This document shows, in pieces, positions 10,450 through 64,000 of a stretch of DNA of 64,000 nucleotides. A model generated the notes under the pieces. That model saw nothing but the letters and a program-made list of their open reading frames with translations, did not search any database and was not told the DNA's origin. This DNA comes from Escherichia coli. Its GTDB lineage: Bacteria > Pseudomonadota > Gammaproteobacteria > Enterobacterales > Enterobacteriaceae. The stretch is taken from assembly GCF_017348835.2 (NCBI RefSeq), contig NZ_CP071375.1; one strand, given 5' to 3'. Position 1 is the first letter of the stretch. Each line of letters begins with the position of its first letter. The position numbers and the translations under genes were made by a program.

Positions 10450-10590
10450 ATGTCAGAAGAAAATAAAGAAAATGGATTTAATCATGTCAAAATATTCACC
10501 AGAATTATATTTATTTTTTCTGTATTAGTTTTTAATGATAACGAATCTAAAATTACCTATGCCGCCGTCAATTTATTTATCCAGATTTAA
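10450..10590 (+). CDS. yqcG: Small protein, 46 aa ([46 protein letters not shown])
   Basis: Not in ORF track (below length cutoff); ATG at 10450 preceded by AAAGGGAG about 7 nt upstream; length and position between queE and ygcG match my recollection of yqcG (symbol assignment uncertain). Confidence 0.5.
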
Positions 10591-15575: not shown

Positions 15576-15645
15576 TAGAATGTCCTGAAAATTGCGGGTC
15601 CGTCAGGTGGAAACCTGTGACCAGAATAGAAGTGAGTGAGTAACA

Positions 15646-15981
15646 CTACCCAATCAGTACGTTAATTTTGGCTTTAATGAGTTGTAATTCCTCTGGGGCA
15701 ACCGTTCCTTTCTTCGTTGCTCCTCTTGCCCGCCAGGCGATACTTTTTACCTGATCAGCTAACGCTACGCCATCACGTTCCTGACCGGATAAAACAACTT
15801 CGAACGGATATCCTTTTGATTGCGTTGTACAAGGAACACACAGACACATACCTGTTTTGTTGTTGTACATGAAAGGACTCAGGACAACAGCTGGACGATG
15901 TCCAGCTTGCTCGCTACCTTTTGTCGGGTCAAAATCAACCCAAATCAGATCGCCCATATCGGGTACGTATCGGCTTACCAT
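15646..15981 (-). CDS. mazF: Type II toxin MazF (mRNA interferase, ACA-specific endoribonuclease)
   Basis: 111-aa [39 protein letters not shown]... Confidence 0.95.
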   Translation of the reverse strand: MVSRYVPDMGDLIWVDFDPTKGSEQAGHRPAVVLSPFMYNNKTGMCLCVPCTTQSKGYPFEVVLSGQERDGVALADQVKSIAWRARGATKKGTVAPEELQLIKAKINVLIG

Positions 15982-16229
15982 TACCAGACTTCCTTATCTT
16001 TCGGCTCTCCCCAGTCGATATTCTCGTGGAGGTTTTCCGGCGTGATGTCGTTGACCAGTTCAGCAAGCGTAAATACGGGCTCTTTACGCACTGGCTCAAT
16101 AATTAATTTGCCATCCACCAGGTCAATCTTCACTTCATCATCAATATTCAGATTGAGCGCCTGCATTAACGTAGCCGGGATCCGCACCGCCGGTGAATTT
16201 CCCCAACGCTTTACGCTACTGTGGATCAT
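15981..16229 (-). CDS. mazE: Type II antitoxin MazE
   Basis: 82-aa [34 protein letters not shown]...; stop overlaps mazF start by 1 nt. Confidence 0.95.
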
Positions 16230-24295: not shown

Positions 24296-25636
24296 TCAAT
24301 GACGGCCGAAAACGGGACGTTTACGGTCAAAGGTCCAGCCGGGGATCAGGTACTGCATCGGGCCTGCGTCGTTACGCGCACCGCCAGGCAGACGTTCATA
24401 GGCCTCATGTGCCTTTTGTACCTGTTCCCAGTCCAGTTCCACGCCCAGACCGGGCGCATCAGGAACGGCAATTTTTCCGTTTTTAATCTCCAGCGGATTT
24501 TTGGTCAGGCGACAGTCGCCCTCCTGCCAAATCCAGTGGGTATCGATAGCGGTAGGATTACCCGGTGCCGCCGCGCCCACATGGGTAAACATCGCCAGAG
24601 AGATATCGAAATGGTTATTAGAATGGCAGCCCCAGGTCAGCCCCCAGTCGTCGCAAAGCTGCGCCACACGGACTGCACCGGAAAGCGTCCAGAAGTGCGG
24701 ATCGGCAAGTGGAATATCTACCGCATTGAGCATCACCGCATGACCCATTTCGCGCCAGTTGGTGGCGATCATGTTAGTCGCGACGGGCAAGCCGGTCGCC
24801 CGCCGAAACTCCGCCATCACTTCACGTCCGGAGAAGCCCTGTTCTGCGCCGCATGGATCTTCGGCATAGGTAAGAACATCATTCAGCCCTTTGCACAGAG
24901 AAATGGCTTCATCAAGCAGCCATGCACCGTTGGGATCAACGGTAATCCGCGCATCCGGGAAGCGTTTCTTCAATGCACGAACAGTGTCGATTTCTTGCTC
25001 GCCAGGTAACACGCCGCCCTTAAGTTTGAAATCTTTAAAGCCGTAGCGATCCTGTGAGGCTTCCGCCAGACGCACAACGGCTTCGCTGTTCATCGCTTTC
25101 TGATGGCGCAACTGATACCACTCATGGTTGCCCGGCGTATTTTCCAGATAAGGAAGATCGGTTTTGGTCCGATCACCGATATAAAACAGATAACCGAGGA
25201 CGGTAATAGCATCGCGTTGTTTGCCTGGTCCTAATAGTTCGCAGACCGGAACATTCAGCGCCTTACCTAGCAGGTCAAGCAAGGCGGCTTCCAACGCCGC
25301 CACGGCATTAACGCGCAATTCAAAAGTCCAGGCTCCTTTACCGAAGGTATCAAAATCGGCGGCCTGATTACCTTTATGCACCTGCTGAACCACTTTATTC
25401 AGGCGCGCAACTTCCTGGCCCAGCACCATCGGAATAGCTTCGACCAGTGTTTGATAAATCACCTCTCCGCCCGGCGCTTCACCAATGCCGGTATGCCCGG
25501 CATTATCGGTGAGTACCACGATATTGCGGGTGAAGTATGCGTTATGCGCACCACCAATATTGAGCAACATGCTGTCATGTCCGGCGACCGGAATGACTTT
25601 CATATCAGTAATAACAGGACTGGATTGTGTCGTCAT
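24296..25636 (-). CDS. gudX: Glucarate dehydratase-related protein (enolase superfamily paralog)
   Basis: 446-aa [29 protein letters not shown]...; clear paralog of the downstream gudD. Confidence 0.95.
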
Positions 25637-26502
25637 CTTATTGCCCCGCGACAGGTTTCAGCTCGATACGCTTGATATCGCCCACCAGCACCAGGTAGCT
25701 CAGTACCGCGATTAAGGCATGAACACCAACATAAATCAGCGCCCCATTAAACGAGCCAGTCGTGCCAACGATATAACCAATTGCGATTGGCGTGACGATG
25801 CCAGAAATGTTACCGAACATGTTGAACAGGCCACCGGAAAGACCGCTGATCTCTTTTGGCGCGGTATCTGCCATTACTGCCCAACCCAGCGCCCCAATGC
25901 CCTTACCGAAGAAGGCCAGCGCCATAAAGCCGATGATCATCCACTCAACGTTGACGTAGTTGCAGAACACCATCACCATCGACAGCAACATGCCCATTAC
26001 GATCGGTGTTTTACGCGCAATGTTCAGCGATCCCGTGCGGCGCATCAGCCAGTCGGAAATAATCCCACCCAGCACACCACCGATAAAACCACAAACCGCC
26101 GGAACGGAAGCCACAAAGCCCGCTTTCAGAATCGACATCCCACGCGCCTGCACCAGATAAACCGGAAACCAGGTAATGAAAAAGTAAGTCAGGGCGTTGA
26201 TACAGTACTGACCGATATAAACGCCGATCATCATCCGTGACCCGAGCAGCTGTTTGATCTGCCCCCACTTCACGCTGAACGGCACTTTAACTTTGGTGTT
26301 TTGCTGATCCATATTGATCAGCGCGCCACCCGCGGCGATGTACTCCAGCTCTTTCTGATTTACCCCCGGATGTTGATTTGGCTCGTGGATGACTTTCAAC
26401 CAGATAAAGCTGATGACAATCCCCAGACCGCCCATAAAGAAGAAGACGTGAACCGCCCCGGAAATCCTGGAGACTAAACTCCCTGAGAAAGAGGTAAACA
26501 GG

Positions 26503-26829
26503 ATGACTAAAAATACTCGTTTTTCCCCCGAAGTCCGTCAGCGGGCGATTCGTATGGTTCTGGAAAGTCAGGATGAATATGACTCACAGTGGGCGGCAAT
26601 TTGTTCCATTGCCCCAAAGATTGGCTGTACGCCGGAGACTCTGCGTGTCTGGGTTCGCCAGCATGAGCGGGATACCGGGAGTGGTGATGGTGGACTCACC
26701 ACCGCTGAACGTCAGCGTCTGAAAGAGCTGGAACGTGAAAATCGTGAACTGCGCCGCAGTAACGATATCCTTCGCCAGGCTTCCGCTTATTTTGCGAAGG
26801 CGGAGTTCGACCGCCTCTGGAAAAAATAA
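26503..26829 (+). CDS. IS3-family transposase OrfA (HTH DNA-binding, leucine-zipper-like C-terminus)
   Basis: 108-aa [29 protein letters not shown]...; ends at an A6 run (26821-26826), the presumed -1 frameshift site. Confidence 0.9.
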
Positions 26830-27716
26830 TGCCACTGCTGGATAAGCTGCGTGAGCAGTACGGGGTCGGACCGGTATGCAGCGAACTGCATATTGCCCCG
26901 TCAACGTATTACCATTGTCAGCAACAGCGACATCATCCGGATAAACGCAGTGCCCGTGCGCAGCACGATGACTGGCTGAAGAAAGAGATACAGCGCGTAT
27001 ACGATGAAAATCACCAGGTATACGGTGTGCGTAAAGTCTGGCGTCAGTTGTTACGGGAAGGTATCAGAGTGGCCAGATGCACTGTGGCACGTCTCATGGC
27101 AGTTATGGGACTTGCCGGTGTTCTCCGGGGTAAAAAGGTCCGCACTACCGTCAGCCGGAAAGCCGTTGCCGCATGCGACCGCGTAAACCGTCAGTTCGTG
27201 GCAGAACGTCCAGACCAGTTGTGGGTGGCTGATTTTACCTGGGTAAGCACATGGCAGGGCTTCGTTTATGTGGCGTTCATCATTGATGTGTTCGCCGGAT
27301 ACATCGTGGGATGGCAGGTCTCATCATCCATGGAAACAACATTCGTGCTGGATGCACTGGAGCAGGCGTTGTGGGCCCGTCGGCCGTCCGGCACAATCCA
27401 TCACAGTGATAAAGGTTCTCAGTATGTATCGCTGGCCTACACGCAGCGGCTTAAGGAAGCCGGATTACTGGCATCAACAGGGAGTACTGGCGACTCGTAT
27501 GACAACGCGATGGCTGAGAGCATCAATGGTCTTTACAAAGCGGAGGTAATACACCGTAAGAGCTGGAAAAACCGTGCAGAAGTGGAACTGGCCACACTCA
27601 CGTGGGTGGACTGGTATAACAATCGACGATTGCTGGAAAGGCTGGGCCATATTCCTCCGGCAGAAGCAGAAAAAGCTTATTATGCTTCCATCGGAAATAA
27701 TGATCTGGCAGCCTGA
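26829..27716 (+). CDS. IS3-family transposase OrfB (DDE integrase-core / rve domain)
   Basis: 295-aa ORF in -1 frame relative to orfA; ...YGVRKVWRQLLREGIRVARCTVARLM...HSDKGSQYVS...YDNAMAESINGLYKAE. Confidence 0.9.
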   Translation: MPLLDKLREQYGVGPVCSELHIAPSTYYHCQQQRHHPDKRSARAQHDDWLKKEIQRVYDENHQVYGVRKVWRQLLREGIRVARCTVARLMAVMGLAGVLRGKKVRTTVSRKAVAACDRVNRQFVAERPDQLWVADFTWVSTWQGFVYVAFIIDVFAGYIVGWQVSSSMETTFVLDALEQALWARRPSGTIHHSDKGSQYVSLAYTQRLKEAGLLASTGSTGDSYDNAMAESINGLYKAEVIHRKSWKNRAEVELATLTWVDWYNNRRLLERLGHIPPAEAEKAYYASIGNNDLAA

Positions 27717-28629
27717 GTTCACAGATAAAACACTCTCCAGGAAACCCGGGGCGGTTCAGACGTGTGACCAGCCCACTTCATGCGTCAGCCAGCCCATAAT
27801 CGGCGCGAAGATCACCGTTGCGAAGTATTGAGCGGAGTTAAAAATCGACACCGCCGTTCCCCTTTCCTGCGCCGGAAACCAGGCCGCAACAATGCGACTG
27901 TTGCCGGGGAAAGATGGCGCTTCAGCAAGCCCGACCAGGAAGCGCAGAGTAAACAGGGCAACGATAATGCCGAATCCACTAAAGATATCGACGAAGCCTT
28001 GCAGCAAGGTAAACATCGACCAGATAAAGATCGACCAGAAGTAGACGCGTTTTGAACCAAAACGATCCAGCAACCAACCACCAGGGATCTGCCCGATAAC
28101 ATAAGCCCATGAGAAGGCAGAGAACACATAGCCCATTCCCACGGGATCAAGGCCGATATCTTTGGCCATTTCCGAACCGGCAATAGAAAGCGTAGCGCGG
28201 TCGCCGTAGTTGAAGGATGTGACGATAAACAACATCACCACTATCCAGTAACGAGCATTCGTGCGTTTTTCCACACTGCTCGCAGCCTGACTTAAAGAAC
28301 TCATTGTTGCACTCCTGAAAATTCGCGTTAGCCACGCTCACTCTGGACTGCGACATCGCCAGGAAATCAGAGGTGACGTAGGGTGTTTTTTGCCGTTTTT
28401 ATAGGTCGTTCGCCGAATACGGCGCGTGTTTATATCTGGCAATAGCAGTATAAAAAGCGCGCCATAGCGGCTCACCGTGCAACAACACAACATTAATGCG
28501 TTCAATGAGGCCCGATTTTGGCATTAGCCCTGGACGGTGGAATCCACTTCACGGAAATGAAAACAAGAACAAGAAAGGAAGGGTTAAAACGAAGAAATAA
28601 AGAAGAGTATGAAATGGATCGCTTGACTC

Positions 28630-29205: not shown

Positions 29206-29988
29206 TTAGGAACTTATCTCTCCATCCTGACCCGATGGCGCACTGAACTCAACCCTTTCATTTTCAGGAAGCAGACCCCGCCAGCCAAATTGTGATAACG
29301 CCTGCATCCAGGTGTCGTCCAGGCCCGCGTGAATAGTCAGCGGCTCGCCAGTAAAAGGATGCGTCAATGACAACTGACTGGCATGCAGCATTAAGCGCTG
29401 AAGGCCAAAATGCTCAGCACCGCTGCGATTCTGGCGTAAATCGCCATGTTTGCTATCGCCAATAATCGGATGACGCAAATGGGCAAGATGGCGACGGAGC
29501 TGGTGCTTGCGTCCGGTTTTCGGCTCCAGTTCCACCAGGCCGTAGCGCGTGGTCGGGTAACGTCCGGTCGCGACCGGCATTTCTACGGTCGCCAGACCGC
29601 GATAATGCGTCACTGCTGGCTGCGGGCCTTTATCTTCGCGGGCAAATTTATCAGCGATTTTGTCCAGTTCTTCCACCAGTGGATAATCCAGCACCGCTTC
29701 TTCCATCAACCAGCCGCGCACAATCGCATGGTAACGTTTCTGGATTTGGTGCTGTTCAAACTGTTGTGCCAGCAGCCGTCCGGCCTCGCTGGATAATCCC
29801 ATCAACAACACACCAGAAGTTGGTCGGTCCAGACGATGAGCAGTAAAAACATGCTGTCCTATCTGGTCACGCACGGTTTGCATGACCACTACTTTCTCGT
29901 CGCGATCCAGCCAGCTGCGGTGAACCAGCCAGCCGGAGGGTTTATTTACCGCAACCAGCCATTCATCCTGATAGAGTATTTCCAGCAT
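29206..29988 (-). CDS. truC: tRNA pseudouridine(65) synthase
   Basis: 260-aa ORF, RluA-family catalytic motif ([13 protein letters not shown]). Confidence 0.93.
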
Positions 29989-30317
29989 TAGCTCGCATCA
30001 TCCGCAAAAAGAGCATCCAGTTTTTCCAACTCAGTCAGAATAAGCGCGCGTTGCGGATGGTCCGTCGCCAGCGCCATTTCATAATAGGGTGCAACGGCAA
30101 AAGCGCCCGGTAACGGCTGGTTGTTATCTAACAAATCGTGCATTCGTGGGATCAGCACCCACTGCAACCACTCCAGTGGTTCCATGGTGTCCATAAAGAA
30201 CGGTTGGGTACTGTTAAATTGATGCGGCTGGGGTTCATCGTTTCGCCAGTGCTGATGTTCACGCAGTAACGCTTCAAGCGCCTGCAACTGGAGACGAACG
30301 CGGTCATGAGTGGTCAT
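29988..30317 (-). CDS. yqcC: DUF446-family protein
   Basis: 109-aa ORF MTTHDRVRLQLQALEALLREHQHWRNDEPQ...; stop overlaps truC start. Confidence 0.85.
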   Translation of the reverse strand: MTTHDRVRLQLQALEALLREHQHWRNDEPQPHQFNSTQPFFMDTMEPLEWLQWVLIPRMHDLLDNNQPLPGAFAVAPYYEMALATDHPQRALILTELEKLDALFADDAS

Positions 30318-30360
30318 AAAGCAACCTCAATAAGAAAAACTGCCGCGAAGGATAGCAGGA

Positions 30361-30719
30361 ATAAAAAAAGGGAGCACTGTATTCACAGTGCTCCCGGTTC
30401 GTTTCGCAGCATTCCAGCTACTTTTGTTGCTCCCTGCTCATCCTTGACAACTTTTCCTCTGGCCTTGCGGCCAATCGTTCATCCTGAACTATTGCTTCCT
30501 GCTCACACCACCCCGATGTGATACTTCATCCTGAAGTGTCCCTGGCCTTCCTGACCCACCGAATCATCCTGACCGGTTCTCATTCTCCATCCTGGAGGTG
30601 TCCTTTAACGCGTCCTGCGTCATCCTCTTCGCTTCATCCAGAAGCCTTTCCCTGAAACACCATCCTGGTGTGTCCTTCAGAAGTGTCATCATCCTGATGT
30701 TCACTTCGTTGTCTGACTC
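30361..30719 (-). ncRNA. csrB: CsrB small regulatory RNA (CsrA-sequestering)
   Basis: Minus-strand transcript with about 18 GGA-containing motifs (CAGGATG/AGGATG family, seen as CATCCTG on the plus strand), ending in hairpin GGGAGCACTG-loop-CAGTGCTCCC plus U-tract (30363-30395); 5' end approximate. Confidence 0.85.
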
Positions 30720-30938
30720 CCTGTCGACGAAGATAGAATCGTCTTTTTCGCGAAGTCTTACAAGGCGCTTACAGACAATGCCTTAAGGAAAATTTCATAT
30801 GAAAGTTAAGAATTAACAAGCAACATATTGATTTTAAATGAAAATAACGATTCTTATCTTTTTAAGTATTCGCTTATTTCCTGGCGATCTCCTACAGAGT
30901 CTGTAAGAGATCTCTCACAACCAGATGGGGTATTTGGA

Positions 30939-43671: not shown

Positions 43672-45090
43672 ATGAAACAAGAAGTTATCCTGGTACTCGA
43701 CTGTGGCGCGACCAATGTCAGGGCCATCGCGGTTAATCGGCAGGGAAAAATTGTTGCCCGCGCCTCAACGCCTAATGCCAGCGATATCGCGATGGAAAAC
43801 AACACCTGGCACCAGTGGTCTTTAGACGCCATTTTGCAACGCTTTGCTGATTGCTGTCGGCAAATCAATAGTGAACTGACTGAATGCCACATCCGCGGTA
43901 TCGCCGTCACCACCTTTGGTGTGGATGGCGCTCTGGTAGATAAGCAAGGCAATCTGCTCTATCCGATCATTAGCTGGAAATGTCCGCGAACAGCAGCGGT
44001 TATGGACAATATTGAACGGTTAATCTCCGCACAGCGGTTGCAGGCTATTTCTGGCGTCGGAGCCTTTAGTTTCAATACGTTATATAAGTTGGTGTGGTTG
44101 AAAGAAAATCATCCACAACTGCTGGAACGCGCGCACGCCTGGCTCTTTATTTCGTCGCTGATTAACCACCGTTTAACCGGCGAATTCACTACTGATATCA
44201 CGATGGCCGGAACCAGCCAGATGCTGGATATCCAGCAACGCGATTTCAGTCCGCAAATTTTACAAGCCACCGGTATTCCACGCCGACTCTTCCCTCGTCT
44301 GGTGGAAGCAGGTGAACAGATTGGTACGCTACAGAACAGCGCCGCAGCAATGCTCGGCTTACCCGTTGGCATACCGGTGATTTCCGCAGGTCACGATACC
44401 CAGTTCGCCCTTTTTGGCGCTGGTGCTGAACAAAATGAACCCGTGCTCTCTTCCGGTACATGGGAAATTTTAATGGTTCGCAGCGCCCAGGTTGATACTT
44501 CGCTGTTAAGTCAGTACGCCGGTTCCACCTGCGAACTGGATAGCCAGGCAGGGTTGTATAACCCAGGTATGCAATGGCTGGCATCCGGCGTGCTGGAATG
44601 GGTGAGAAAACTGTTCTGGACGGCTGAAACACCCTGGCAAATGTTGATTGAAGAGGCTCGTCTGATCGCGCCTGGCGCGGATGGCGTAAAAATGCAGTGT
44701 GATTTATTGTCGTGTCAGAACGCTGGCTGGCAAGGAGTGACGCTTAATACCACGCGGGGGCATTTCTATCGCGCGGCGCTGGAAGGGTTAACCGCGCAAT
44801 TACAGCGCAATCTACAGATGCTGGAAAAAATCGGGCACTTTAAAGCCTCTGAATTATTGTTAGTCGGTGGAGGAAGTCGCAACACATTGTGGAATCAGAT
44901 TAAAGCCAATATGCTTGATATTCCGGTAAAAGTTCTCGACGATGCCGAAACGACCGTCGCAGGAGCTGCGCTGTTCGGTTGGTATGGCGTAGGGGAATTT
45001 AACAGCCCGGAAGAAGCCCGTGCACAGATTCATTATCAGTACCGTTATTTCTACCCGCAAACTGAACCTGAATTTATAGAGGAAGTGTGA
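43672..45090 (+). CDS. fucK: L-fuculokinase (FGGY family)
   Basis: ORF 43642..45090; start taken at [21 protein letters not shown]... (472 aa), with a 10-codon upstream extension possible. Confidence 0.9.
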
Positions 45091-46346: not shown

Positions 46347-47447
46347 TTATCGCTCGTCGCGACGACCACCCACCGCAGCCCAGATGCGGCGGACGTGCAC
46401 CGTCACTTCTTCGCGATCGTGATACAACTGCCGCGCCTGAATCTGAGCATTTATGCCATGTTCATCAAGCTGTGCCTGAATATACGCCAGATTGTGTGAT
46501 ACTTCTTCGTAGCGTTTTTTCATCGGCAGTTTGAGGTTGAAAATGGTTTCACGGCACCAGCCATTAACCAGCCACTGCGCCATCAATGCCGCAACTTTCG
46601 CCGGTTTTTCAACCATATCGCATACCATCCAGGAGATATTGCTGCGTGTCGGACGGAATTTGAACCCGTCTTCCCGTAGCCACGTCACCTGCCCGGTATC
46701 CATCAGACTTTGCGCCATCGGGCCGTTGTCGACGGAATAAACCCACATGTTGCGCTTCACCAGTTGGTAGGTCCAGCCGCCTGGGCAAGCGCCCAAATCC
46801 ACCGCCCACATCCCGTTCGCCAGGCGTTCATCCCACTCATCCGCAGGAATAAACACATGAAATGCCTCTTCCAGTTTGAGCGTGGAACGACTCGGCGCAT
46901 CTGCCGGAAATTTCAGGCGCGGAATGCCCATATAGAACGGCGAATTATTGTTGCTGTATGAGTAACCGGTATAGCAGCAGCCTGGTGCAATGAAGAATAC
47001 ATGCACTACCGGACGCTTCGGCGTTTCATAGTTCGCCAGCACCCCAGCATCGCGCAAGGCAGCGCGTAGCGGCACGGTGAATTTACGGCAGAATTTCAGC
47101 AACTCTTTGCTTTCGTTGGTATCGGCAACTTCAACACGCAGTTCACCGCCCTTCTCTACTACACCCTGTAACATGCCGACAATGGGGGTAATACGATCTT
47201 CTGGCGGCAAATGCTGCAAGAGTTCCCCCACCACAAACCACTGGCGGGCAAAAATTAATGAACTGAACGGCAGCTCACGGATTAACTTATCGCCATCATC
47301 AGGTTGATAACATTCATAAATGACATAACCCGCATTCTCTTTCACGCGGGCAAAACCGAAAATTTCCCGCTGGCCGGCTTTATCGGTAATTTCTGCGGCG
47401 CACTCTTTTTCAAAGCCCGGACGGCACAGCAATACAACCTTATTCAT
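46347..47447 (-). CDS. rlmM: 23S rRNA 2'-O-ribose C2498 methyltransferase
   Basis: 366-aa [38 protein letters not shown]... Confidence 0.93.
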
Positions 47448-48899: not shown

Positions 48900-49105
48900 A
48901 CTTCCTGAGCCGGAACGAAAAGTTTTATCGGAATGCGTGTTCTGGTGAACTTTTGGCTTACGGTTGTGATGTTGTGTTGTTGTGTTTGCAATTGGTCTGC
49001 GATTCAGACCATGGTAGCAAAGCTACCTTTTTTCACTTCCTGTACATTTACCCTGTCTGTCCATAGTGATTAATGTAGCACCGCCTAATTGCGGTGCTTT
49101 TTTTT
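48900..49105 (+). ncRNA. gcvB: GcvB small regulatory RNA (Hfq-dependent, GU-rich R1 region)
   Basis: Divergent from gcvA; begins ACTTCCTGAGCCGGAACGAAAAGTTTTATCGG, contains GTTGTGATGTTGTGTTGTTGTGTTTG, ends at hairpin GCACCGC-ctaatt-GCGGTGC plus T8 (49098-49105). Promoter -35 TTGAGC (48865-70), -10 TATAGT (48888-93). Confidence 0.85.
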
Positions 49106-49540: not shown

Positions 49541-50746
49541 ATGAACGTTTTTAATCCCGCGCAGTTTCGCGCCCAGTTTCCCGCACTACAGGATGCGGGC
49601 GTCTATCTCGACAGCGCCGCGACCGCGCTTAAACCTGAAGCCGTGGTTGAAGCCACTCGGCAGTTTTACAGCCTGAGCGCCGGAAACGTCCATCGCAGCC
49701 AGTTTGCCGAAGCCCAACGCCTGACCGCGCGTTATGAAGCTGCGCGGGAAAAAGTGGCACAATTACTGAATGCATCGGATGACAAAAATATCGTCTGGAC
49801 GCGCGGCACCACTGAATCCATCAACATGGTGGCACAATGCTATGCGCGTCCGCGTCTGCAACCGGGCGATGAGATTATTGTCAGCGTGGCAGAACACCAC
49901 GCCAACCTCGTCCCCTGGCTGATGGTCGCCCAACAAACTGGAGCCAAAGTGGTGAAATTGCCGCTTAATGCGCAACGACTGCCGGATGTCGATTTGTTGC
50001 CGGAACTGATTACTCCCCGTAGTCGGATTCTGGCGTTGGGTCAGATGTCGAACGTTACTGGCGGTTGCCCGGATCTGGCGCGAGCGATTACCTTTGCTCA
50101 TTCAGCCGGGATGGTGGTGATGGTTGATGGTGCTCAGGGGGCGGTGCATTTCCCCGCAGATGTTCAACAACTGGATATCGATTTCTATGCTTTCTCTGGT
50201 CACAAACTGTATGGCCCGACGGGTATCGGCGTGCTGTATGGCAAATCAGAACTGCTGGAAGCGATGTCGCCCTGGCTGGGCGGCGGCAAAATGGTTCACG
50301 AAGTGAGTTTTGACGGCTTCACGACTCAATCTGCGCCGTGGAAACTGGAAGCAGGAACGCCAAATGTGGCTGGTGTCATAGGATTAAGCGCGGCGCTGGA
50401 ATGGCTGGCAGATTACGATATCAACCAGGCCGAAAGCTGGAGCCGTAGTTTAGCAACACTGGCGGAAGATGCGCTGGCGAAACGTCCAGGCTTCCGTTCA
50501 TTCCGCTGCCAGGATTCCAGCCTGCTGGCCTTTGATTTTGCTGGCGTTCATCACAGCGATATGGTGACGCTGCTGGCGGAGTATGGTATTGCCTTGCGGG
50601 CCGGGCAACATTGCGCTCAGCCGCTACTGGCAGAATTAGGCGTAACCGGCACACTGCGCGCCTCTTTTGCGCCATATAATACAAAGAGTGATGTGGATGC
50701 GCTGGTGAATGCCGTTGACCGCGCGCTGGAATTATTGGTGGATTAA
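49541..50746 (+). CDS. csdA: Cysteine desulfurase / sulfinate desulfinase (PLP-dependent, class V)
   Basis: ORF 49505..50746; start at [35 protein letters not shown] (401 aa). Confidence 0.93.
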
Positions 50747-51189
50747 TGACGAACCCGCAATTCGCCGGACATCCGTTCGGCACAACCGTAACCGCAGAAA
50801 CGTTACGCAATACCTTCGCACCGTTGACGCAATGGGAAGATAAATATCGCCAGTTGATCATGCTGGGGAAACAGCTTCCGGCTTTGCCAGACGAGTTAAA
50901 AGCGCAGGCTAAAGAGATTGCCGGATGCGAAAACCGCGTCTGGCTGGGATATACCGTGGCTGAAAACGGTAAAATGCACTTCTTTGGCGACAGCGAAGGA
51001 CGTATAGTACGCGGCCTGCTGGCGGTGCTGTTGACTGCCGTTGAGGGGAAAACCGCCGCCGAATTGCAGGCACAGTCGCCGCTGGCATTGTTTGATGAGC
51101 TGGGATTGCGTGCGCAACTTAGCGCCTCACGCAGCCAGGGGTTAAATGCGTTAAGCGAGGCGATTATCGCTGCGACGAAGCAGGTTTAA
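50746..51189 (+). CDS. csdE: Sulfur acceptor protein CsdE (SufE-like)
   Basis: 147-aa [41 protein letters not shown]...; start overlaps csdA stop (TAATG). Confidence 0.93.
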
Positions 51190-52283: not shown

Positions 52284-53381
52284 TCAGCCACTAAAGACGT
52301 TACCTGCGCCCGGAGCCGTTTTCAGCACCCAAACCCGTCCATAGTGGTTGTACCAACCTGCGCGGTGTCCGGCTTCCGGCCCGATCCCTTGATAGATATC
52401 GAAGTGTTGGCCTTTGATTGCGCCACCGACATCCAGCGCCACCATCAGACGCAATTCGTACTGACCATTAAATTTGCCGTTATTATCCAGCAGCGGCACT
52501 TCTGCCAGCAAGGTTGTACCTGGCGGAATAATGGAACGATCAGAGGCAACAGAAGCACGGCCAACCAGCGGCACCGCACTTGCCCCTTTCACCGGTGCAA
52601 AAGATTGAGGTTTAAAGAAGACGAAAGACGGGTTCTGTTCCAGCAGCTCGCGAACCTCGGCTTCACTGTGTGTTTCGCCCCAGTGACGAATCGCCTGCAT
52701 CGACATGTCTTCTTTTTTCACTTCGCCACGGTCGATCAGCACCTTACCAATGCTGCGATAGGCATGACCGTTTTTCCCTGCATAGCTGAAAAAGTTAAGC
52801 GGACTGCCATCACCAAAGTCGATATACCCACTACCCTGCACATCCATAATGAAGTTATCCATCAGAGAGTTGCTGTAAGCGAGGATGTATTTATCGCCCA
52901 ATGCCCCTGCGTAGATCTCCGCACGAGACGGCAGACGACCACGTTTTGGCGGCATACGGTAAATAGGATACTGGAACTCGCCCTGGCGGGTATGGCGCGC
53001 CTGAATTACCGGCGTGTAATAGCCTGTAAACTGCACGTTACCATAGTTGTCGGCACCTTCCATCTGCCAGGCATCAATGCCGAACTGGCGCATATTGCGG
53101 GTATCACCGCCTGCGCGCAGCCACTCTTGCACCGCGTTATAAACATTACTCTGGTTGCCATACAGACGCGGTGACGAATTACGGATATGGTTAATTTGCT
53201 CGGCAAAATCACCGGCGTTAATCGGCGCGCCAACGGCATCTGGCTGGTTCACCAGAGAGAAAGGCTGGGTAAATTTCCCGTCTTTATATTGCTGTCCGCG
53301 ATCGGTTGGTTTGGAAGAGCAGGCGGCAAGCATTGCCACAACCGTGCCCATAAGAAGGTACTTTACCCAACGTCCTTTCAT
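52284..53381 (-). CDS. mltA: Membrane-bound lytic murein transglycosylase A
   Basis: ORF 52284..53480; start at MKGRWVKYLLMGTVVAMLAACSS (lipobox LAAC; 365 aa). Confidence 0.93.
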   Translation of the reverse strand: MKGRWVKYLLMGTVVAMLAACSSKPTDRGQQYKDGKFTQPFSLVNQPDAVGAPINAGDFAEQINHIRNSSPRLYGNQSNVYNAVQEWLRAGGDTRNMRQFGIDAWQMEGADNYGNVQFTGYYTPVIQARHTRQGEFQYPIYRMPPKRGRLPSRAEIYAGALGDKYILAYSNSLMDNFIMDVQGSGYIDFGDGSPLNFFSYAGKNGHAYRSIGKVLIDRGEVKKEDMSMQAIRHWGETHSEAEVRELLEQNPSFVFFKPQSFAPVKGASAVPLVGRASVASDRSIIPPGTTLLAEVPLLDNNGKFNGQYELRLMVALDVGGAIKGQHFDIYQGIGPEAGHRAGWYNHYGRVWVLKTAPGAGNVFSG

Positions 53382-53589: not shown

Positions 53590-53666
<77 letters not shown>

Positions 53667-53699
53667 ATTAAAATTTGATGAAGTAAAGCAGTACGGTGA

Positions 53700-53776
<77 letters not shown>

Positions 53777-53809
53777 ATCAAATTTGATGAAGTAAAAGCA
53801 GTACGGTGA

Positions 53810-53886
<77 letters not shown>

Positions 53887-53961: not shown

Positions 53962-55215
53962 TCATCCCCTTCTCGCCAGCGTCGCCCCATCGGCAAAATA
54001 CGCTTTAATCCCCGCAAGAATAGACTCCGCAACTTCCTGCTGGAAAGTCGCCGTTTTCAGTTTACGCTCTTCCTCAACGTTACTGATAAACGCCGTTTCG
54101 ACCAGAATGGAGGGAATATCTGGTGCCTTTAGTACGGCAAACCCGGCCTGTTCAACTTGATTTTTATGCAGCTTGTTGATTTTACCGAGCTTATTCAGTA
54201 CCGCTTTACCAAACTTCAGGCTGTCGGCAATGGTCAGCGACTGCACCATATCGAACATGGTGTGGTCGACATAGCGGTCACCGCTTTTGCTCACGCCACC
54301 AATCAAGTCCGAGGCGTTCTGGGTTTGTGCCAGATATTTTGCCGCAGTACTGGTTGCGCCTTTGGTTGAGAGCGCAAACACCGAGGAACCGCTCGGCTGG
54401 CGACTGGTAAAGGCGTCGGCATGGATAGAGACAAACAGGTCAGCACGCTGTTTCTGGGCTTTTGCTACGCGCACTTGCAACGGAATGAAGATGTCTTCAT
54501 TGCGCGTCATGTACACCTTCATATTGCCCTCTTTCTCGATCAGAGAGCGCAAACGGCGAGCTATTTGCAATACCACATCTTTTTCGCGCGTTTTGTATTT
54601 CCCCACCGCACCGGAGTCTTCGCCACCGTGGCCAGGGTCAAGCATAATGACAATCGGACGATCGCGCCCTGCTTTACCCGGTTGTGGACCACTTTGCGCT
54701 GGCGGCACCTGCTTTTCGAGGTCGCCTTTGTTGTAATCCTCCAGCAGCGCCAGCAGCGGATCCTGCATATCCTGTGCATTGGCCGGATAGAGGTCCATCA
54801 CCAGACGCTCTTTAAACCCGGCGACCGGCGCAAGGGCAAACAGCTGCGGTTTTACGTTTTGCTTTAATTCAAAAACCATCCGTACGGTTTGCGGGTCAAA
54901 TTGCCCGACGCGCGCCGACTTGATGAACGGGTCGTCTGCACGAATTTGTGCCGCCATCCCCTTGAGTACCGAGTTCAGGTTTACATCTTCGATATCCACC
55001 ACCACGCGTTCAGGGTTACTCAACGCGAACTGCTTATATTTCAGCTGACGATTTGATTCTACCGTCACGCGGGTGTAGCTGGACGCAGGCCAGACGCGCA
55101 CCGCCACGACCTGGCTGACCGCAGCCAGGCTGACCTGACTTACGCTCAATAGCCACATGGCGCCCGCGCCTTGCAGTAAACGACGACGGCTGATTGCAGT
55201 GTTGGATCCTGACAT
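53962..55215 (-). CDS. amiC: N-acetylmuramoyl-L-alanine amidase AmiC (Tat-exported)
   Basis: ORF 53962..55305; start at [23 protein letters not shown] (twin-arginine signal; 417 aa). Confidence 0.93.
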
Positions 55216-56778: not shown

Positions 56779-56790
56779 GCGATGAAAATC

Positions 56791-56832
56791 GCCGGATGCG
56801 GCAGGCGTAACACTCGTGCGTCGCATCCGGCA
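56791..56832. repeat. REP element between argA and recD
   Basis: GCCGGATGCG...CGCATCCGGC imperfect palindrome. Confidence 0.65.
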
Positions 56833-56839
56833 ATTACGT

Positions 56840-58666
56840 TTATTCCCGCGAACTAAACAACGCCGCCAGACCACTGCGCCGCTCAGTACGAGTGGCGATT
56901 GCCGCACTTAATATACGCTCATCGGCATACAGCGACAGACGGCGACGCGCGCGGGTCACCGCGGTGTATACCAGCTCTCGCGTTACTACCGGCGTGCGTT
57001 GGCTCGGTAAAATCAACGCCGCATGGTCGAACTCCGATCCCTGCGATTTATGTACCGTCATCGCCCACGTAGTTTCGTGCTCTGGCAAGCGACTCGGTTG
57101 CACAGACTTAATATTGCCGTCCGGCATCGCAAACCAGACGCGCGTCCCCTGCCCGCGATCCAGCGCAATACCGATATCGCCATTAAACAACCCAAGCGCG
57201 CTGTCATTACGGGCAATCATCACCGGTCGGCCTTCGTACCAACGAGAGTGCAGATGACGATGAATTTTGCGCTTCTGTTGCATAAACTGCTCAATTCGTT
57301 CATTCAGTCCAGCTACGCCAAACGGCCCTTCCCGCAGGGCGCACAAAAGCTGGTACTCATTGAACGCCTGAATGATTAAATCCGGCTCGGCACGCGCTTG
57401 CAGCAGATCCAGATAACGTCCGTAACCCGCAAGAGCTTCCTCAAGCATCGCAATATAATCTTCGCCGCTCTGTAAAAGTCGTTTTTCGATATCAGTAAAA
57501 TCCTGCTGAAAAACGGTTTTCACTGCCGTTTTATCACCACGGTTGATCGCCGCAGCTAACTGACCAATGCCAGAATCGTTGCCGAAACGATAGCTTTTTT
57601 GCAGCAGGCAGAGACTGTCGCGCAAAGATGCCGCTTCTGTGCCAGTTCCTGCCGGAACGTGAGTCCCCGTCAGGCGGCTTAGCTGCCTGGCACGCTCGGC
57701 GGTAAAGCCCGCGTTGGCATAAGCGCAGATATCGCCCAGCACAGCCCCAGCCTCAACCGAGGCCAGTTGATCACGATCGCCGAGAAAGATCACTCGCGCA
57801 TGATCTGGCAAGGCGTCGATCAGTCTCGACATCATAGGCAGATCGATCATTGACGCTTCATCTACCACCAGCACATCAAGATGCAGCGGGTTACCGGCAT
57901 GATGACGTAAACGCTGGCTACCCGGCTGCGCGCCCAGCAATCGGTGCAAAGTGCTGGCATCTTCCGGAATGCGTTTCTTTTGTTCATCGGTCAGCGGTAA
58001 CTGTCGCAAAGCCTTGCCGAGAGATTCGGTTAAGCGCGCGGCAGCTTTACCCGTTGGTGCAGCCAGACGGATACGGCAGCGTTCGCCGTCGGCCATTTGA
58101 ATTAACGCTGCCAGCAACTTCGCCACGGTGGTCGTTTTACCGGTGCCTGGGCCGCCGGAAATCACCGAGATCCGCCGCGTCAGCGCCACTGCCGCTGCAA
58201 CTTTTTGCCAGTTAATTTCATCGCTTACTGGAAAAAGTTTGTCCAGGGTTTGCGCCAGTAGAGCTTCATCAACCTCGATGGCATGATTCACCTCATTGAA
58301 GAAGCGCGCTACCGTCCGCTCGTTACACCACATGCGATTCAAATAAAGACGATCGCCACAGAGGATCATCGGCGTGGGTTCATCTCCCCTGCTGACCGCT
58401 TGAGAAGCCAACAAGCATTCTTCCCAATTTTGTAGCTCACCGATTTCACTGACACAGGTCGCCAACAGCGGATGCGACGCCTCGTTATTTTCCAGTCGTG
58501 AAAGCGGCAAACAAACGTGTCCCTCTCCGGCATCATGACTTAACAGTGCCGCCGCGAGGGTGACGGCAGGATGTTCATCTCCCGCCACGGTCAGGGCAAA
58601 TTGCACATCCAGCGGGCGTAGCTGTTTGTGCTCCACAGCTTCCAGTAATTGCTTTTGCAATTTCAT
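56840..58666 (-). CDS. recD: Exodeoxyribonuclease V alpha subunit (RecD helicase)
   Basis: 608-aa [30 protein letters not shown]...; Walker [10 protein letters not shown]. Confidence 0.97.
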
Positions 58667-61600
58667 TACGCCTCCTCCAGGGTCATACCGGCAAACATCT
58701 CATCCATCAAGGCAATCAACCCGGCGTTGGGTCGGGTTGTGTAAATCCCCTGTTGCGGATGTTCTTTATCAACGCCACGCAGGAACAGATAAATAACGCC
58801 GCCAAAGTGGTGCTCATAGTCGTAATCAGCAATGCGATGGCGCAGATAACGATGCAGCGCCAGGGTATAAAGCTGATATTGCAGATCATAGCGGTGTGCC
58901 TGCATTGCCGCTGCCATAGCCTGTTGGGTGTAAGCCGAACTGTCTTCACCCAACCAGTTGGATTTATAGTCGAGCAGGTAATAACGCCCTTCGTGGCGGA
59001 ACACCAGGTCGATAAAGCCTTTTAACATGCCACGTACCTGCATGAACTCCAGCGGCGGGCAGCCTGCGGATAGCGGGTCAAACTGGCGGATTAACGTATC
59101 AAGCTGACTGGCGATAAGCGGTTCACTAATCGGCAGATAAAACTCCATCTCCACCTGTTTATTGCGGGCGGAAAGTTGACTCAGGCTTACGCCGGTTTCA
59201 TTGAGAGGTGCCTGGAGGACAGCCGTGATCCACTCGGTCAATACCGGTTCCCACTGCGATTCAAAGCCGCCGAGTTCCAGTTTTTCCCGCACCCAGTTCG
59301 GGTCAACCGGCTGGGTAAAATCCAGGTCTTCAAACAAACTGTGCAAGAACGTCCCCGGTGACGCACCGCGCGGAAACTGATGTGGTGTTAACGTCGGTTC
59401 TTCAACGACGCTGGCAACGCCTGCAGCATCGACATCCAGCCGAGGCATCAAATCCTGGGCGATACCGTGACCACGCTGTTGCAAACCAGAGTAGCTGGTG
59501 ACGCGCCAGTTATCGCCGGGCAATCGTTGTAACGTCTTCGCATTCAGCTCTGCTGTAGAAACATCATTAACCTGCCAGGGTTGGTTATCACCAGTTTGTG
59601 CCGTTTGCCAGGCAATATCATCATCGCATAACGCTTCAATACAGGTGCGAAGCCCTGCCGCATCTTGCGGTTCCCCTTTTTGCAGCAAACGCCCGAGCGC
59701 ACTTTGGTGGACGTCGGTGTCACCTTTTTTATCGCCACGACGGCGCACCAGCGGTGCAACGCCGAGACTACAATGCCAAACCGAACGCGTCAGCGCCACG
59801 TAAAGCAAACGCAGATCTTCCGCCAGACGTTCGGCCTCCGCGAGATCGACACTTTCTGGCGCAGCGTTAAGATCCAGAACAGCCTCAAACGAGTGGCGAT
59901 CGTGATAAAACGCCTGTTCCTGGACGCGGAAATTGGTAATAAATGGCAACCAGACAAGCGAATATTCCAGCCCTTTTGATTTATGGATCGTGACAATCTG
60001 CACCAGATGTTTATCACTTTCGAGGCGCATTTGTTGGCTGGAGGCATTACTGTCTGGCTCGAGGATATGTTGCGATAACCAGCGTACCAGCGCATGTTCA
60101 CTTTCCAGCTGCGTTCCGGCTTCTTGTAGCAGTTCGCTGATATGCAAGATATCGGTAAGACGCCGCTCACCGCCTGCCGTTGCCAGCAAGTTTTCTGCAA
60201 TGTTACGCGCCGACATCAGCGCCCGCAGCATCGGCATAACGCCACGTTTGCGCCAGATTTGCCGATAACCATCGAACTCTTCGACCACCGCGTCCCACGC
60301 ATGTTCGTCATTATTCAGCGTTTCGATATCCAGCGCGTTCAGCCCCATCATTGACGTTGCCAGCGCACTACGCAGGGTGTTCTCACGTTCGGGCGTCATC
60401 ACCGCCTGCAACAACCAAAGCATTTCCTGCGCTTCCAGAGTTTCAAAAACACTGTCGCGGTTCGAAAGGTAAACGGAAGGGATTTCCAGCAACGTTAAGG
60501 CATCGCGCACCTGGGCAGCCTCCTGGCGGCTGCGCACCAGCACACTGATGTCCGAAGCACGCACCGGACGCGCTTCGTCGCCGTTCATCAGCAACGCTTC
60601 GCCCCGCTGTCCGGCTTGTAGCCAGTCGCGGATTTGCGCAGCACATACCTGCGCCATGGTACTTTGATAGTCGCCAACGCCGCAGCTTTCGCCTTCCATC
60701 AGCCACATTTTCATCGCAGGCTGCGTTTCACCTTTAAATACAAAACGTAACGCCTGATTTTTCCCGGCTGATTTCACTGGAATAAACGGTATTTCGCGAA
60801 ACATGAACGCGTCATCAGTCTGGCTGAAAAGCTTGTTCACGCTGTTCACCATTCCTGGTGCGGAACGCCAGTTGGTGTCTAAAGTGTAGTGGGCGTGAAC
60901 TTCGCTACGCGCCTTCATATAAGTGAAGATATCCGCACCCCGGAATGCATATATGGCCTGCTTCGGGTCGCCAATTAGCAACAATGCGGTTTCCGGCTGA
61001 TGGTGCCAGATACGGCGAAAAATTCGGTACTGCTGGGGGTCGGTATCCTGAAATTCATCGATCATTGCCACCGGGAATCGCGTACGGATCGCCGCTGCCA
61101 ACACCTCACCGCTTTCGCTACGCAGCGCGGAATCGAGCCGACTTAACATGTCATCAAAACCCAATTCGCCACGGCGGCGTTTTTCACGCGCTACTGTTTC
61201 GCGGATCTCAGCCAATGCGCGGGTGATCACCAGATCGCGGATCGACAATGGTTCTGCAAGCAGTTGATCGATCGCCTCAAACAGTGGATGTCGCGGGGTT
61301 TCCCCCCCGGCCTTCGTGCGATCTTCTAAGAAACGCTGGGAGAATTTTTCCAGCGACTCCGGCAACTGATAACTGTTTGTCTCTTCTTCTGCCCAGGCGC
61401 TGATCTTGTCGATCCATTTAGCCTGATTGCTACGGTTAAACTTGCGTCGATCAATACCAGAAGATTCGATCAGCGCATCCAGTTCACCCACTGCGTCGCG
61501 CCACTGCTGTTTTACCGTATCAATACGCGCCACAATTTGCGCGTGACGGGAAGCCAGCGTTTCATCATCGGGCGGCGGTGCTTTGATAACCGGCGCTTCG

Positions 61601-62208
61601 CCTTGCAGATAACGATTAATATCGCGCAGCAACGCCTGCGGCCCTTTCCAGGTTTCAAAGACGACCTGGGCTATTTCACGCGGCAGCGGGTAGCAGTGGC
61701 GACGCCAGAAATCGGCGCAGGCCTGGTAGCGTAGCAGAGACTCATCTTCAATCAGCTGCTGCTCAAACAGCATGCCGGATTCAAAGGCATTCAGGTTGAG
61801 CATGCGCTGGCAAAAGCCGTGAATAGTAAAGACTGCCGCTTCATCCATCTGCCGTTCGGCTAACAACAACCACTGCGCGGCTTGCGCTTTATCGTCGATC
61901 TCTTCCAGCAGGCGTTCGTACAGTGGATTGTCGGTGGTTTCACGCAGACAGGCGATGCGCAACTCGTGGATATTGCTACGGATACGACCGCGCAATTCTG
62001 CCGTGGCAGCCTCGGTAAAGGTGACCACCAGCAGTTCTTCAACGGTCAGCGGGCGGGGAAAGGCGGCGGAACCGCCTAGTCCAAGTAACAGGCGCAAATA
62101 GAGCGCCGCAATCGTAAAGGTTTTGCCTGTGCCGGCAGAGGCTTCAATCAGGCGCTCGCCCTGTAAGGGCAAGCGCAAAGGATCTAGTGTCTCGGCGACA
62201 TCACTCAT
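58666..62208 (-). CDS. recB: Exodeoxyribonuclease V beta subunit (RecB helicase-nuclease)
   Basis: ORF 58666..62217; start at [41 protein letters not shown] (1180 aa); stop overlaps recD start (TAATG). Confidence 0.97.
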
Positions 62209-64000
62209 TCTTTTCACTCATCAGGGGCATTGTTTGCTGCAACGCGCTGACGTTCTCCCACACTTTCCAGCCTTCAGGATGCACATATTCGGCTTTCCCG
62301 TTCTGGCTGCCGGAAATCTGCGACAGAATAGCCATGCCTTGCGGCTCGACCACCGCCTGATGGAAGAAATCAGCAAGTTTTTGCGGCGTCAGCAGTTTTA
62401 TCTGGGCCACGATTTTATCACGCGAATCGAAGCGCATATTGCCGCGATCGAAATCTTTACTTAACTTCGATGCTTCTTCGCCGAGCGTTTGCGGTGCCTG
62501 CAGCATCTGGGTAATTACCGCCTGCTGGATTTGCGCAAACTCATCTGGCTTCATCGCCCGCAATTTTGCCTCTGCGGTTGGGAAAAACGCCTTGTAACGC
62601 TCCCACAAGAATGAAGGCTGTTTATCATTGCTTTGCAAAAGGAAGCCCATGCCCCACTGACGCCCCACGCTCATTGGAAACGCAAACACGGCATAGCCCA
62701 ATTGTTCTTCGGTACGCAACTGATTGTAGAACCACGGCTGTACGATCTGCCCCAACAGAGAGCTATAGGCTGAGCTGGTGTATTCATCGTAGCCAGTCGG
62801 TACAAATACCGCTGCCAGTGCGGAGTCGGTGCTGTTACCGGCTTTTTCAAAGATGACGGATTGTTTTTTATCGACCACTACATCTTTGTTTCGACACCAC
62901 TCTGAACCATCAGCGCCCAACTGTTTTTGCACATCGCGTGCCAGCGTTGTTGCCTGGGCCTCGGTCATGTTGCCGATAACCATAAACTCTGGTCGAGCCC
63001 CTGATTTTAAGGCGTCGCGATAGGCCAGCACCTCTTTCAACGTAATGGAGGGCAAAATTTTACGCCGTTCATCTCGCGAGAAGTACGGCACTTGCGAGAG
63101 CATCTGCGCGGGCATAATCGCCTGCTCAAACGCTTTACCCTTTTCTGCGGAATCCATCATCTGGTTATACCAGGACTTCGCCTGCTCAAGCTGATCTTCC
63201 GTAGCGGTATAGCTAAAGTACCCCTCGAGCAATGCCTGGAACAGCTGCGGCAGACGCTGGGTGTAACCATTAGCATTAACCATAAGGCCGTTGTTAGCGT
63301 TGGTGGAAAAACTTATGCCACCAACCGACGCCTGGTTGCTTAACTGACCAAGCGCCAGCCCTGCGAGATAATCATTGAGCGCAAACATCACCTGATTGCG
63401 GGCGCTGTCCATGGCTTTCGGATTACGCAAAATCAGGCTGACATCAGCTTTGGGTTCGCTGGAAAAATAACGGCTTGGCGCATACACCACGCGCAGATTC
63501 GACTCATCAACAATCAGCTCTGGATGGTCATATTTCTTCTCTGACTTAATCAGCGAGAAATCGTCAGGAATATAGGGGTTAAGCTCCGGTAAGGAGAGCG
63601 CAATATTGGCAGCTTTTTGCTGCCAGTCAGCGAAAGTTTGTGCGCTAATTTTATCGACCTGATACGGCGCATCGACAAAATAAGCCGTTTTATTGTGCGG
63701 CTCTTTCGGGCTGATATACCAGATACGCGCATTCTGCGGCGTCATCATCGCCAGACGTTCCTTTACTGCTTTAGCATCGTACCGATCGGCAATATTGACT
63801 GCATCCAGCGTATGCTCAACAGGAACGCGAATCATAGTATCTGCCAGCCATTCGACGTAATCCATATCACGGGTGATTGACGGATAACGGAAGTCGATAT
63901 CCAGCACATTCGCCAGTTCATCGAAGTATTGTTTATCGATCCCTTTTTCACGCAACAGATTGAGGTAGCTAAAAATGGCCGCCACAACCTGATCACGATT
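62201..64000 (-). CDS. ptrA: Protease III (pitrilysin, M16 family); 5' end lies beyond the window
   Basis: Minus-strand frame open to the window end; the track ORF 62201..63985 is only the portion from an internal Met; stop at 62201-62203 overlaps recB start by 8 nt. Confidence 0.9.
   Translation of the reverse strand, partial: NRDQVVAAIFSYLNLLREKGIDKQYFDELANVLDIDFRYPSITRDMDYVEWLADTMIRVPVEHTLDAVNIADRYDAKAVKERLAMMTPQNARIWYISPKEPHNKTAYFVDAPYQVDKISAQTFADWQQKAANIALSLPELNPYIPDDFSLIKSEKKYDHPELIVDESNLRVVYAPSRYFSSEPKADVSLILRNPKAMDSARNQVMFALNDYLAGLALGQLSNQASVGGISFSTNANNGLMVNANGYTQRLPQLFQALLEGYFSYTATEDQLEQAKSWYNQMMDSAEKGKAFEQAIMPAQMLSQVPYFSRDERRKILPSITLKEVLAYRDALKSGARPEFMVIGNMTEAQATTLARDVQKQLGADGSEWCRNKDVVVDKKQSVIFEKAGNSTDSALAAVFVPTGYDEYTSSAYSSLLGQIVQPWFYNQLRTEEQLGYAVFAFPMSVGRQWGMGFLLQSNDKQPSFLWERYKAFFPTAEAKLRAMKPDEFAQIQQAVITQMLQAPQTLGEEASKLSKDFDRGNMRFDSRDKIVAQIKLLTPQKLADFFHQAVVEPQGMAILSQISGSQNGKAEYVHPEGWKVWENVSALQQTMPLMSEKNE

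Follow-up and report, generated by a model that had tools for sequence, protein, structure and literature searches.

Short stop/start overlaps and likely translational coupling in an Escherichia coli chromosomal segment containing ptrA-recB-recD

Background

Genome-wide, 707 out of 2,987 Escherichia coli gene pairs (24%) are spaced at -8 to +6 nt, and overlapping pairs are 4.5-fold enriched in subunits of heteromeric complexes (PMC10666635). Spacings of -4, -1 and -8 are enriched, and the efficiency of translational coupling is highest between -4 and +3 nt and drops with overlaps longer than 4 nt (PMC12548453). Four out of five native E. coli pairs tested at -4 were coupled. A Shine-Dalgarno (SD) sequence inside the upstream gene was helpful in four of five tested pairs but is not universal. 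In the same tests, bioBF initiated de novo despite its 4-nt overlap (Huber et al., PMC6728339). An overlap therefore does not prove coupling.

The genes ptrA, recB and recD form one polycistronic operon, in which deletion of an Hfq site in the ptrA 5′UTR led to a higher translational efficiency of RecB (PMC12342828). An eLife 2025 paper hints that RecB synthesis depends on ribosomes terminating on ptrA. The stop/start overlaps described here, including those of this operon, were found in a 64,000-nt stretch of the E. coli chromosome, which we call the window and in whose coordinates all positions are given.

Overlaps in the window

The window runs from ygcQ to ptrA (K-12 b2769-b2821). Two annotations were compared with it: the PGAP annotation of the near-identical strain PE164 and the K-12 MG1655 reference record NC_000913.3. 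Across the 64 kb, PE164 and the window showed 7 mismatches and a single 1-nt indel, the latter near position 27,100 within an IS3 element. In window coordinates, every annotated CDS was an uninterrupted frame from start codon to stop codon, annotated pseudogenes excepted.

An earlier note on this DNA had listed seven stop/start overlaps, and all seven were read directly in the sequence where it had placed them. Comparison with reference annotation, the check that the note had set, returned the same seven boundaries in both records. On the minus strand these were the 8-nt overlap of ptrA and recB (62201-62208), the TAATG junction of recB and recD (58664-58668), the 8-nt overlap of ygdD and rlmM (47440-47447), the TAATG junctions of yqcC and truC (29986-29990, common base 29988) and of mazE and mazF (15979-15983, common base 15981), and the 4-nt ATGA overlap of ygcR and ygcQ (804-807), which encode electron-transfer-flavoprotein beta-like and alpha-like subunits. 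The TAATG junction of csdA and csdE (50744-50748, common base 50746) was on the plus strand. The list had overlooked an eighth pair, ygcS and ygcR, which overlap by 23 nt on the minus strand (1561-1583) in both annotations, with a strong SD, AGGAGG, before the ygcR ATG.

All eight pairs were co-directional. Of the seven listed ones, four were spaced at -1, one at -4 and two at -8, all inside the range of about -8 to +10 nt that we drew for reinitiation from PMC10666635 and PMC12548453; ygcS/ygcR, at -23, was outside it. Nine of the 35 co-directional pairs in the window (26%) lay at -8 to +6 nt, close to the published genome-wide 24%. The reading of these overlaps as ordinary operon organisation was borne out: bacterial operons are normally laid out in this way, as has been well described, and nothing in it is new. 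The pairs share several traits with known coupled pairs. Both genes point the same way and, outside ptrA-recB-recD, presumably belong to one operon, the stop codon of the first overlaps the start codon of the second by 1, 4 or 8 nt, and the second gene has its ribosome-binding region within the coding sequence of the first.

The TAATG or ATGA motif by itself is no evidence of a gene start. A start codon overlapped the stop codon at -1 or -4 at 12 of the 46 annotated stops, and a gene started in only five of these 12 cases, leaving seven unused copies at other stops in the window; its frequency is therefore roughly that expected from composition. Real gene pairs, by contrast, are spaced far from uniformly. 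Among the 17 pairs at -25 to +30 nt, five were spaced at -1 or -4 (binomial P = 2.5e-4, uniform null) and seven at -1, -4 or -8 (P = 1.5e-5).

The mazEF pair has the layout of type II toxin-antitoxin systems, with the antitoxin first and a 1-nt overlap between its stop and the toxin start. Such systems usually have this order, which presumably makes production of the toxin dependent on that of the antitoxin. By their annotated accessions the products are standard E. coli MazE and MazF, with no difference.

The recB/recD junction

The recB gene (58666-62208, minus strand; 1180 aa) encodes the beta subunit of RecBCD and recD (56840-58666, minus strand; 608 aa) the alpha subunit, both as annotated. 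RecB residues 1-1180 matched residues 1-1180 of PDB 1w36_B and RecD residues 1-608 matched residues 1-608 of 1w36_D, each at E = 0; since each query matched a chain of 1w36, the two are subunits in one solved complex. Gene order, both protein lengths and both overlaps were identical to those of the K-12 ptrA-recB-recD operon (PMC12342828), with strain-level substitutions as the only difference between the two operons.

At the junction, the recB TAA (58668-58666) and the recD ATG (58666-58664) have base 58666 in common. A strong SD, GGAGGAGG (58671-58678, minus strand), is embedded in the last recB codons, 4 nt 5′ of the ATG, with an anti-SD duplex of -12.1 kcal/mol. In a comparison of 80 Enterobacteriaceae species, recB and recD overlapped in all 80 (65 at -4 and 15 at -1), and an SD core was found upstream of recD in every one of them (median duplex -9.8 kcal/mol). 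The overlap was kept even where RecD identity to the query fell to 61%. This SD would let recD start either through reinitiation that it assists or through a newly bound 30S subunit, and either route would tie RecD output to that of RecB, with which RecD is joined in RecBCD.

The ptrA/recB junction

The 3′ part of ptrA (pitrilysin, or protease III; 62201-64000, minus strand) ends in a TGA at 62203-62201, and the gene runs past the window end. Its 8-nt overlap with recB, ATGAGTGA, begins with the recB ATG at 62208-62206. No SD core was found upstream of recB in the window, where the anti-SD duplex was -2.8 kcal/mol. Of 77 species compared at this junction, 76 had the overlap and one had an SD core before recB (median duplex -3.0 kcal/mol). 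The single exception to the overlap, Intestinirhabdus alba, was also the sole species with the SD core. Its 413-nt spacer between ptrA and recB matched nothing in Rfam and contained no convincing ORF. Across species, overlap geometry at recB/recD and ptrA/recB changed among -1, -4, -8 and -20, and almost never to a spacer.

Because recB is essentially devoid of an SD wherever it overlaps ptrA, its low translation probably depends on termination-reinitiation, in which a ribosome restarts at recB right after finishing ptrA. The junction differs from tested coupled pairs, most of which needed an SD for efficient reinitiation, and from known coupled pairs in that its products, the periplasmic protease PtrA and the cytoplasmic nuclease RecB, are functionally unrelated. 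Inside ptrA-recB-recD, a weak test found no promoter-like site on the coding strand, where nothing exceeded shuffle expectation, and terminator-like sites at shuffle level.

SD strength and RNA structure

Anti-SD duplexes at the eight junctions were strong for recD (-12.1 kcal/mol) and ygcR (-13.8), moderate for mazF (-7.0) and csdE (-6.8), and weak for ygcQ (-5.4), rlmM (-5.3), truC (-3.3) and recB (-2.8). Folding of the region from -99 to +30 revealed no RNA structure occluding the start at any of the eight junctions (z -1.85 to +1.44 against shuffles). As no junction folded significantly better than its shuffles, structure-enforced coupling is supported neither way.

Discussion

These are genuine short overlaps of co-directional genes in known or probable operons, of the standard -1 (TAATG), -4 (ATGA) and -8 classes. 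We consider it likely that they let a ribosome terminating on the first gene reach the start of the second, whose translation would thereby be coupled, in whole or in part, to that of the first. Our literature search turned up no direct measurement of coupling in these eight pairs, and a dependence of downstream on upstream translation is plausible from the junctions themselves. Since coupling falls off beyond an overlap of 4 nt, the 8-nt and 23-nt cases may couple weakly at most. Four of the eight pairs presumably encode interacting partners, judging from their products (RecB-RecD, MazE-MazF, CsdA-CsdE and the ETF-like YgcR-YgcQ). We take ptrA/recB, ygdD/rlmM and ygcS/ygcR not to encode known partners, and an argument from stoichiometry is thus inapplicable to them.

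It is very improbable that some of the overlaps are annotation artefacts, with the true downstream start lying further 3′ and the genes not overlapping. Most annotated starts are computer predictions, in-frame alternatives do exist (for instance recD TTG +2, rlmM TTG +5 and mazF ATG +8), and the ygcS start is disputed between PGAP and K-12 (469 and 445 aa, respectively). However, all eight downstream starts were the same in two separate annotations, and the alternatives were either non-ATG or without an SD. The annotated downstream start was the first ATG of its ORF in every case but one: in ygcQ an ATG without an SD precedes it in frame by 11 codons. Starts that abolish the overlap would shorten the gene by 2 to 38 codons, the nearest being TTG or GTG, and later in-frame ATGs were weak in SD pairing (mazF +8, ygcR +14, truC +35, csdE +38). 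The recB and recD starts aligned at residue 1 in most of the 80 species, as ATG or GTG, and the alternative TTG was not conserved. Chains in solved structures also have the predicted lengths: besides RecB and RecD, MazF (111 aa) matched PDB chains 3nfc_A and 1ub4_A, of the same length, and CsdE (147 aa) gave full-length matches to 4lw4_C, 5ft8_Q and 1ni7_A. The suggestion that the overlaps back the chosen gene starts was therefore sustained by the two annotations, the chain lengths and the cross-species start alignment.

The overlaps could also be real but neutral, produced by genome compaction and stop/start drift, with free 30S subunits starting each downstream gene independently. The strong SDs that recD (-12.1 kcal/mol; SD core in 80/80 species) and ygcR (-13.8 kcal/mol) have of their own would allow this, as would the absence of predicted inhibitory local structure at every junction, and bioBF is a published 4-nt overlap without coupling. 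Geometry moreover drifts freely between genera among -1, -4 and -8. We nevertheless regard neutrality as unlikely. The recB gene is expressed though an SD core is lacking in 76 of 77 species, and the sole lineage without the ptrA/recB overlap has one. Overlap was maintained in 80/80 species at recB/recD and 76/77 at ptrA/recB despite RecD identity as low as 61%, and four of the five native overlapping pairs tested in E. coli were coupled.

Coupling being the preferred reading, the two junctions of the ptrA-recB-recD interval probably work differently, recD by SD-assisted initiation and recB by termination-reinitiation. A further proposal, which we put forward tentatively as possible rather than probable, is that in the sampled Enterobacteriaceae recB lacks its own ribosome-binding site and is made only by ribosomes terminating on the unrelated ptrA, 8 or 4 nt 3′ of the recB start. 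The overlap would hold RecB at few molecules per cell and pass on the effect of Hfq binding at the ptrA 5′UTR, and the lineage with the 413-nt spacer would have compensated by gaining an SD. The contrast between the SD-rich recD and SD-free recB junctions, constant in the sampled Enterobacteriaceae, would offer a concrete mechanism for the very low copy number of RecB and a possible route from Hfq control at the ptrA leader to RecB. It refines known biology and is not a discovery. The overlaps otherwise serve mainly as quality control, confirming that the gene boundaries first chosen were right and that the window has ordinary E. coli operon architecture.

Strain context

Identity to K-12 was about 99% over a 36-kb block holding the ptrA-recB-recD operon. 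An unusual divergence of the recB region was considered and rejected, the 500-nt identity profile against K-12 being the usual 96-100% mosaic. Both recB and recD were annotated under these names in 5,425 E. coli genomes, only 17 of which were at least 99% identical in the recB region.

Stop/start overlaps in the window

The gene overlaps in the window follow a textbook arrangement that is already known. Seven had been listed in the earlier note, and reading the junctions directly showed each position to be correct to the base: ptrA/recB (62201-62208, ATGAGTGA, 8 nt), recB/recD (58668-58664, TAATG, base 58666 in common), csdA/csdE (TAATG, base 50746 in common), ygdD/rlmM (47440-47447, 8 nt), yqcC/truC (TAATG, base 29988 in common), mazE/mazF (TAATG, base 15981 in common) and ygcR/ygcQ (804-807, ATGA). 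The list was incomplete, since a 23-nt overlap of ygcS and ygcR (1561-1583) had been overlooked. The K-12 annotation shows the identical seven overlaps, so none is removed by the reference start sites.

A TAATG or ATGA alone proves nothing, as a start codon overlaps the annotated stop (-1 or -4 form) at 12 of 46 stops and serves as a gene start in just 5. Seven annotated stops with an unused overlapping start codon (TAATG, TAGTG, TGATG or NTGA) were found, those of ygcU (2992-2994), yqcG (10588-10590), mazF (15646-15648), gudX (24296-24298), fucK (45088-45090), mltA (52284-52286) and amiC (53962-53964); the motif by itself is therefore uninformative. Gene-pair spacing in the window is strongly non-uniform. 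Spacings from -25 to +30 nt occur in 17 co-directional pairs, of which five lie at exactly -1 or -4 (P = 2.5e-4, uniform null) and seven at -1, -4 or -8 (P = 1.5e-5, uniform null). Genome-wide, three spacing classes are enriched, -4, -1 and -8 (PMC12548453; PMC10666635). Spacings within -8 to +6 occur in 9 of 35 window pairs (26%) and in 707 of 2,987 pairs (24%) in E. coli overall (PMC10666635). The overlaps are real and non-random, yet their frequency is ordinary and they match the known genome-wide pattern. The earlier reading of them as ordinary operon organisation is supported.

We know of no partnership between the products of ptrA-recB, ygdD-rlmM, yqcC-truC or ygcS-ygcR. By reading of gene products, physical partners are encoded by four of the eight pairs (RecB-RecD, MazE-MazF, CsdA-CsdE and the ETF-like YgcR-YgcQ), in line with published data in which heteromeric complexes are enriched 4.5-fold among overlapping pairs (PMC10666635).

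The annotated downstream start was the first ATG of the ORF in seven of the eight pairs. The exception was ygcQ, with an in-frame ATG 11 codons upstream that has no Shine-Dalgarno (SD) sequence (anti-SD duplex energy -0.1 kcal/mol). Starts removing the overlaps would cost 2 to 38 codons, with TTG or GTG as the nearest options, and SD pairing was weak at the later ATGs (mazF +8, ygcR +14, truC +35, csdE +38). By ORF listing, recB would start at a GTG three codons upstream of its ATG; this GTG has no SD pairing (+0.6 kcal/mol) and is missing from junction sequences of, for example, Klebsiella, Raoultella and Kluyvera. Solved-structure chains equalled the predicted lengths and matched from residue 1 for RecB (1180), RecD (608), MazF (111) and CsdE (147). 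The start of ygcS (1561-2970) differs between PGAP (469 aa) and K-12 (445 aa), which alters the ygcU-ygcS spacing and leaves the overlaps discussed here unaffected.

Conservation of the recB and recD junctions

We compared 80 Enterobacteriaceae loci from one RecD scan of species-representative genomes (RecD identity 61-98%), placing the RecB and PtrA C-termini and the RecD and RecB N-termini by tblastn and extending each upstream gene to its stop. The recB/recD overlap was present in all 80 species, as 4 nt (ATGA or GTGA) in 65 and 1 nt in 15, so that the TAATG of E. coli is the minority form. For ptrA/recB, 76 of 77 species had an overlap (4 nt in 41, 8 nt in 31, 1 nt in 2 and 20 nt in 2). 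Overlap geometry shifts repeatedly between and within genera, while a spacer arises only once.

Ribosome-binding potential is sharply different at the two junctions. An SD core (GGAG, GAGG or AGGA) precedes recD in 80/80 species (median anti-SD duplex -9.8 kcal/mol) and recB in only 1/77 (median -3.0 kcal/mol). The species in question is Intestinirhabdus alba, which alone among the 77 has a ptrA-recB spacer. Its SD core is GAGGA, and the spacer (1546-1958 of its locus, L070) measures 413 nt to the homologous recB start, or 392 nt if recB instead begins at an upstream ATG at 1938. This GC-rich spacer matches no Rfam family and contains no convincing ORF. The overlaps are of low interest overall, and only the recB start, where an SD-free overlap is conserved, merits further experiment.

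Probable translational coupling

Translational coupling is the best-supported reading of the overlaps, though an inferred one. The ptrA-recB-recD genes form a single operon in which the recB ribosome-binding site lies within ptrA, and RecB is translated more efficiently once an Hfq site is removed from the ptrA 5'UTR (PMC12342828), as coupling predicts. In reporter tests of native E. coli pairs with 4-nt overlaps, four of five were coupled, the exception being bioBF (PMC6728339). A spacer of 20-40 nt makes coupling collapse (PMC10666635), and longer overlaps weaken it (PMC12548453). A literature search found no coupling measurement for these eight pairs. The junctions showed unremarkable local folding (z from -1.85 to +1.44), giving no sign that structure blocks independent initiation.

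Under coupling, most recB translation would rely on ribosomes that have just reached the ptrA stop, and this would agree with the very low output of recB. The recD start may be used by SD-assisted reinitiation or by fresh initiation, close-coupled to recB, and this fits RecB and RecD being subunits of one complex. No coding-strand promoter was detected in a scan within ptrA-recB-recD, and terminator-like sites there were at chance level, which is weakly consistent with co-transcription. A GC-rich hairpin, TGCCGCATCCGGCG (56790-56803, minus strand), lies about 37 nt past the recD stop. REP-like in appearance, it may mark where the transcript ends; it was scored terminator-like, in a region where the count of such sites equals shuffle expectation.

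Identity of the window and strain comparison

The window extends from ygcQ to ptrA (K-12 b2769-b2821) and is about 98-99% identical to K-12 MG1655. Out of 5,426 complete genomes of E. coli, 5,425 were matched by a 9-kb query around the ptrA-recB-recD junctions, with amiC, argA, recD, recB and ptrA annotated under the match. Compared with strain PE164 (NZ_CP114128.1), there were 2 mismatches over 21 kb, and 5 mismatches and one 1-nt indel over 44 kb. Gene coordinates are those of the PE164 PGAP annotation carried over to the window; after transfer, all intact CDSs began with a start codon, ended with a stop codon and were otherwise free of stops.

The sole indel against PE164, near 27,100, falls in an IS3-family element (26451-27757) inside gudP. 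The element carries a frameshifted transposase CDS (26503-27716, + strand) and a PGAP-annotated AL1L pseudoknot, is flanked by gudP fragments (25638-26459 and 27759-28304) and is absent from K-12. The yqcE gene (5620-6824), intact in K-12, is a pseudogene here: 73 nt of the K-12 sequence are missing at 6235/6236, which disrupts the frame. Similarity to K-12 was lowest (94%, many gaps) between ygcE and queE (about 8967-9301), where a CRISPR repeat array is annotated in the near-identical PE164. The K-12 annotation places the antisense RNA aMEF over the mazE/mazF junction (about 15580-16020) and the small RNAs CsrB (csrB, about 30360-30730) and GcvB (gcvB, about 48900-49105), all positions being estimated from K-12; the three have no PGAP annotation in PE164. 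Three initiator tRNA-Met genes, metZ, metW and metV, lie in tandem between mltA and amiC (53590-53886, + strand) and account for the internal repeat matches in the self-comparison with K-12.
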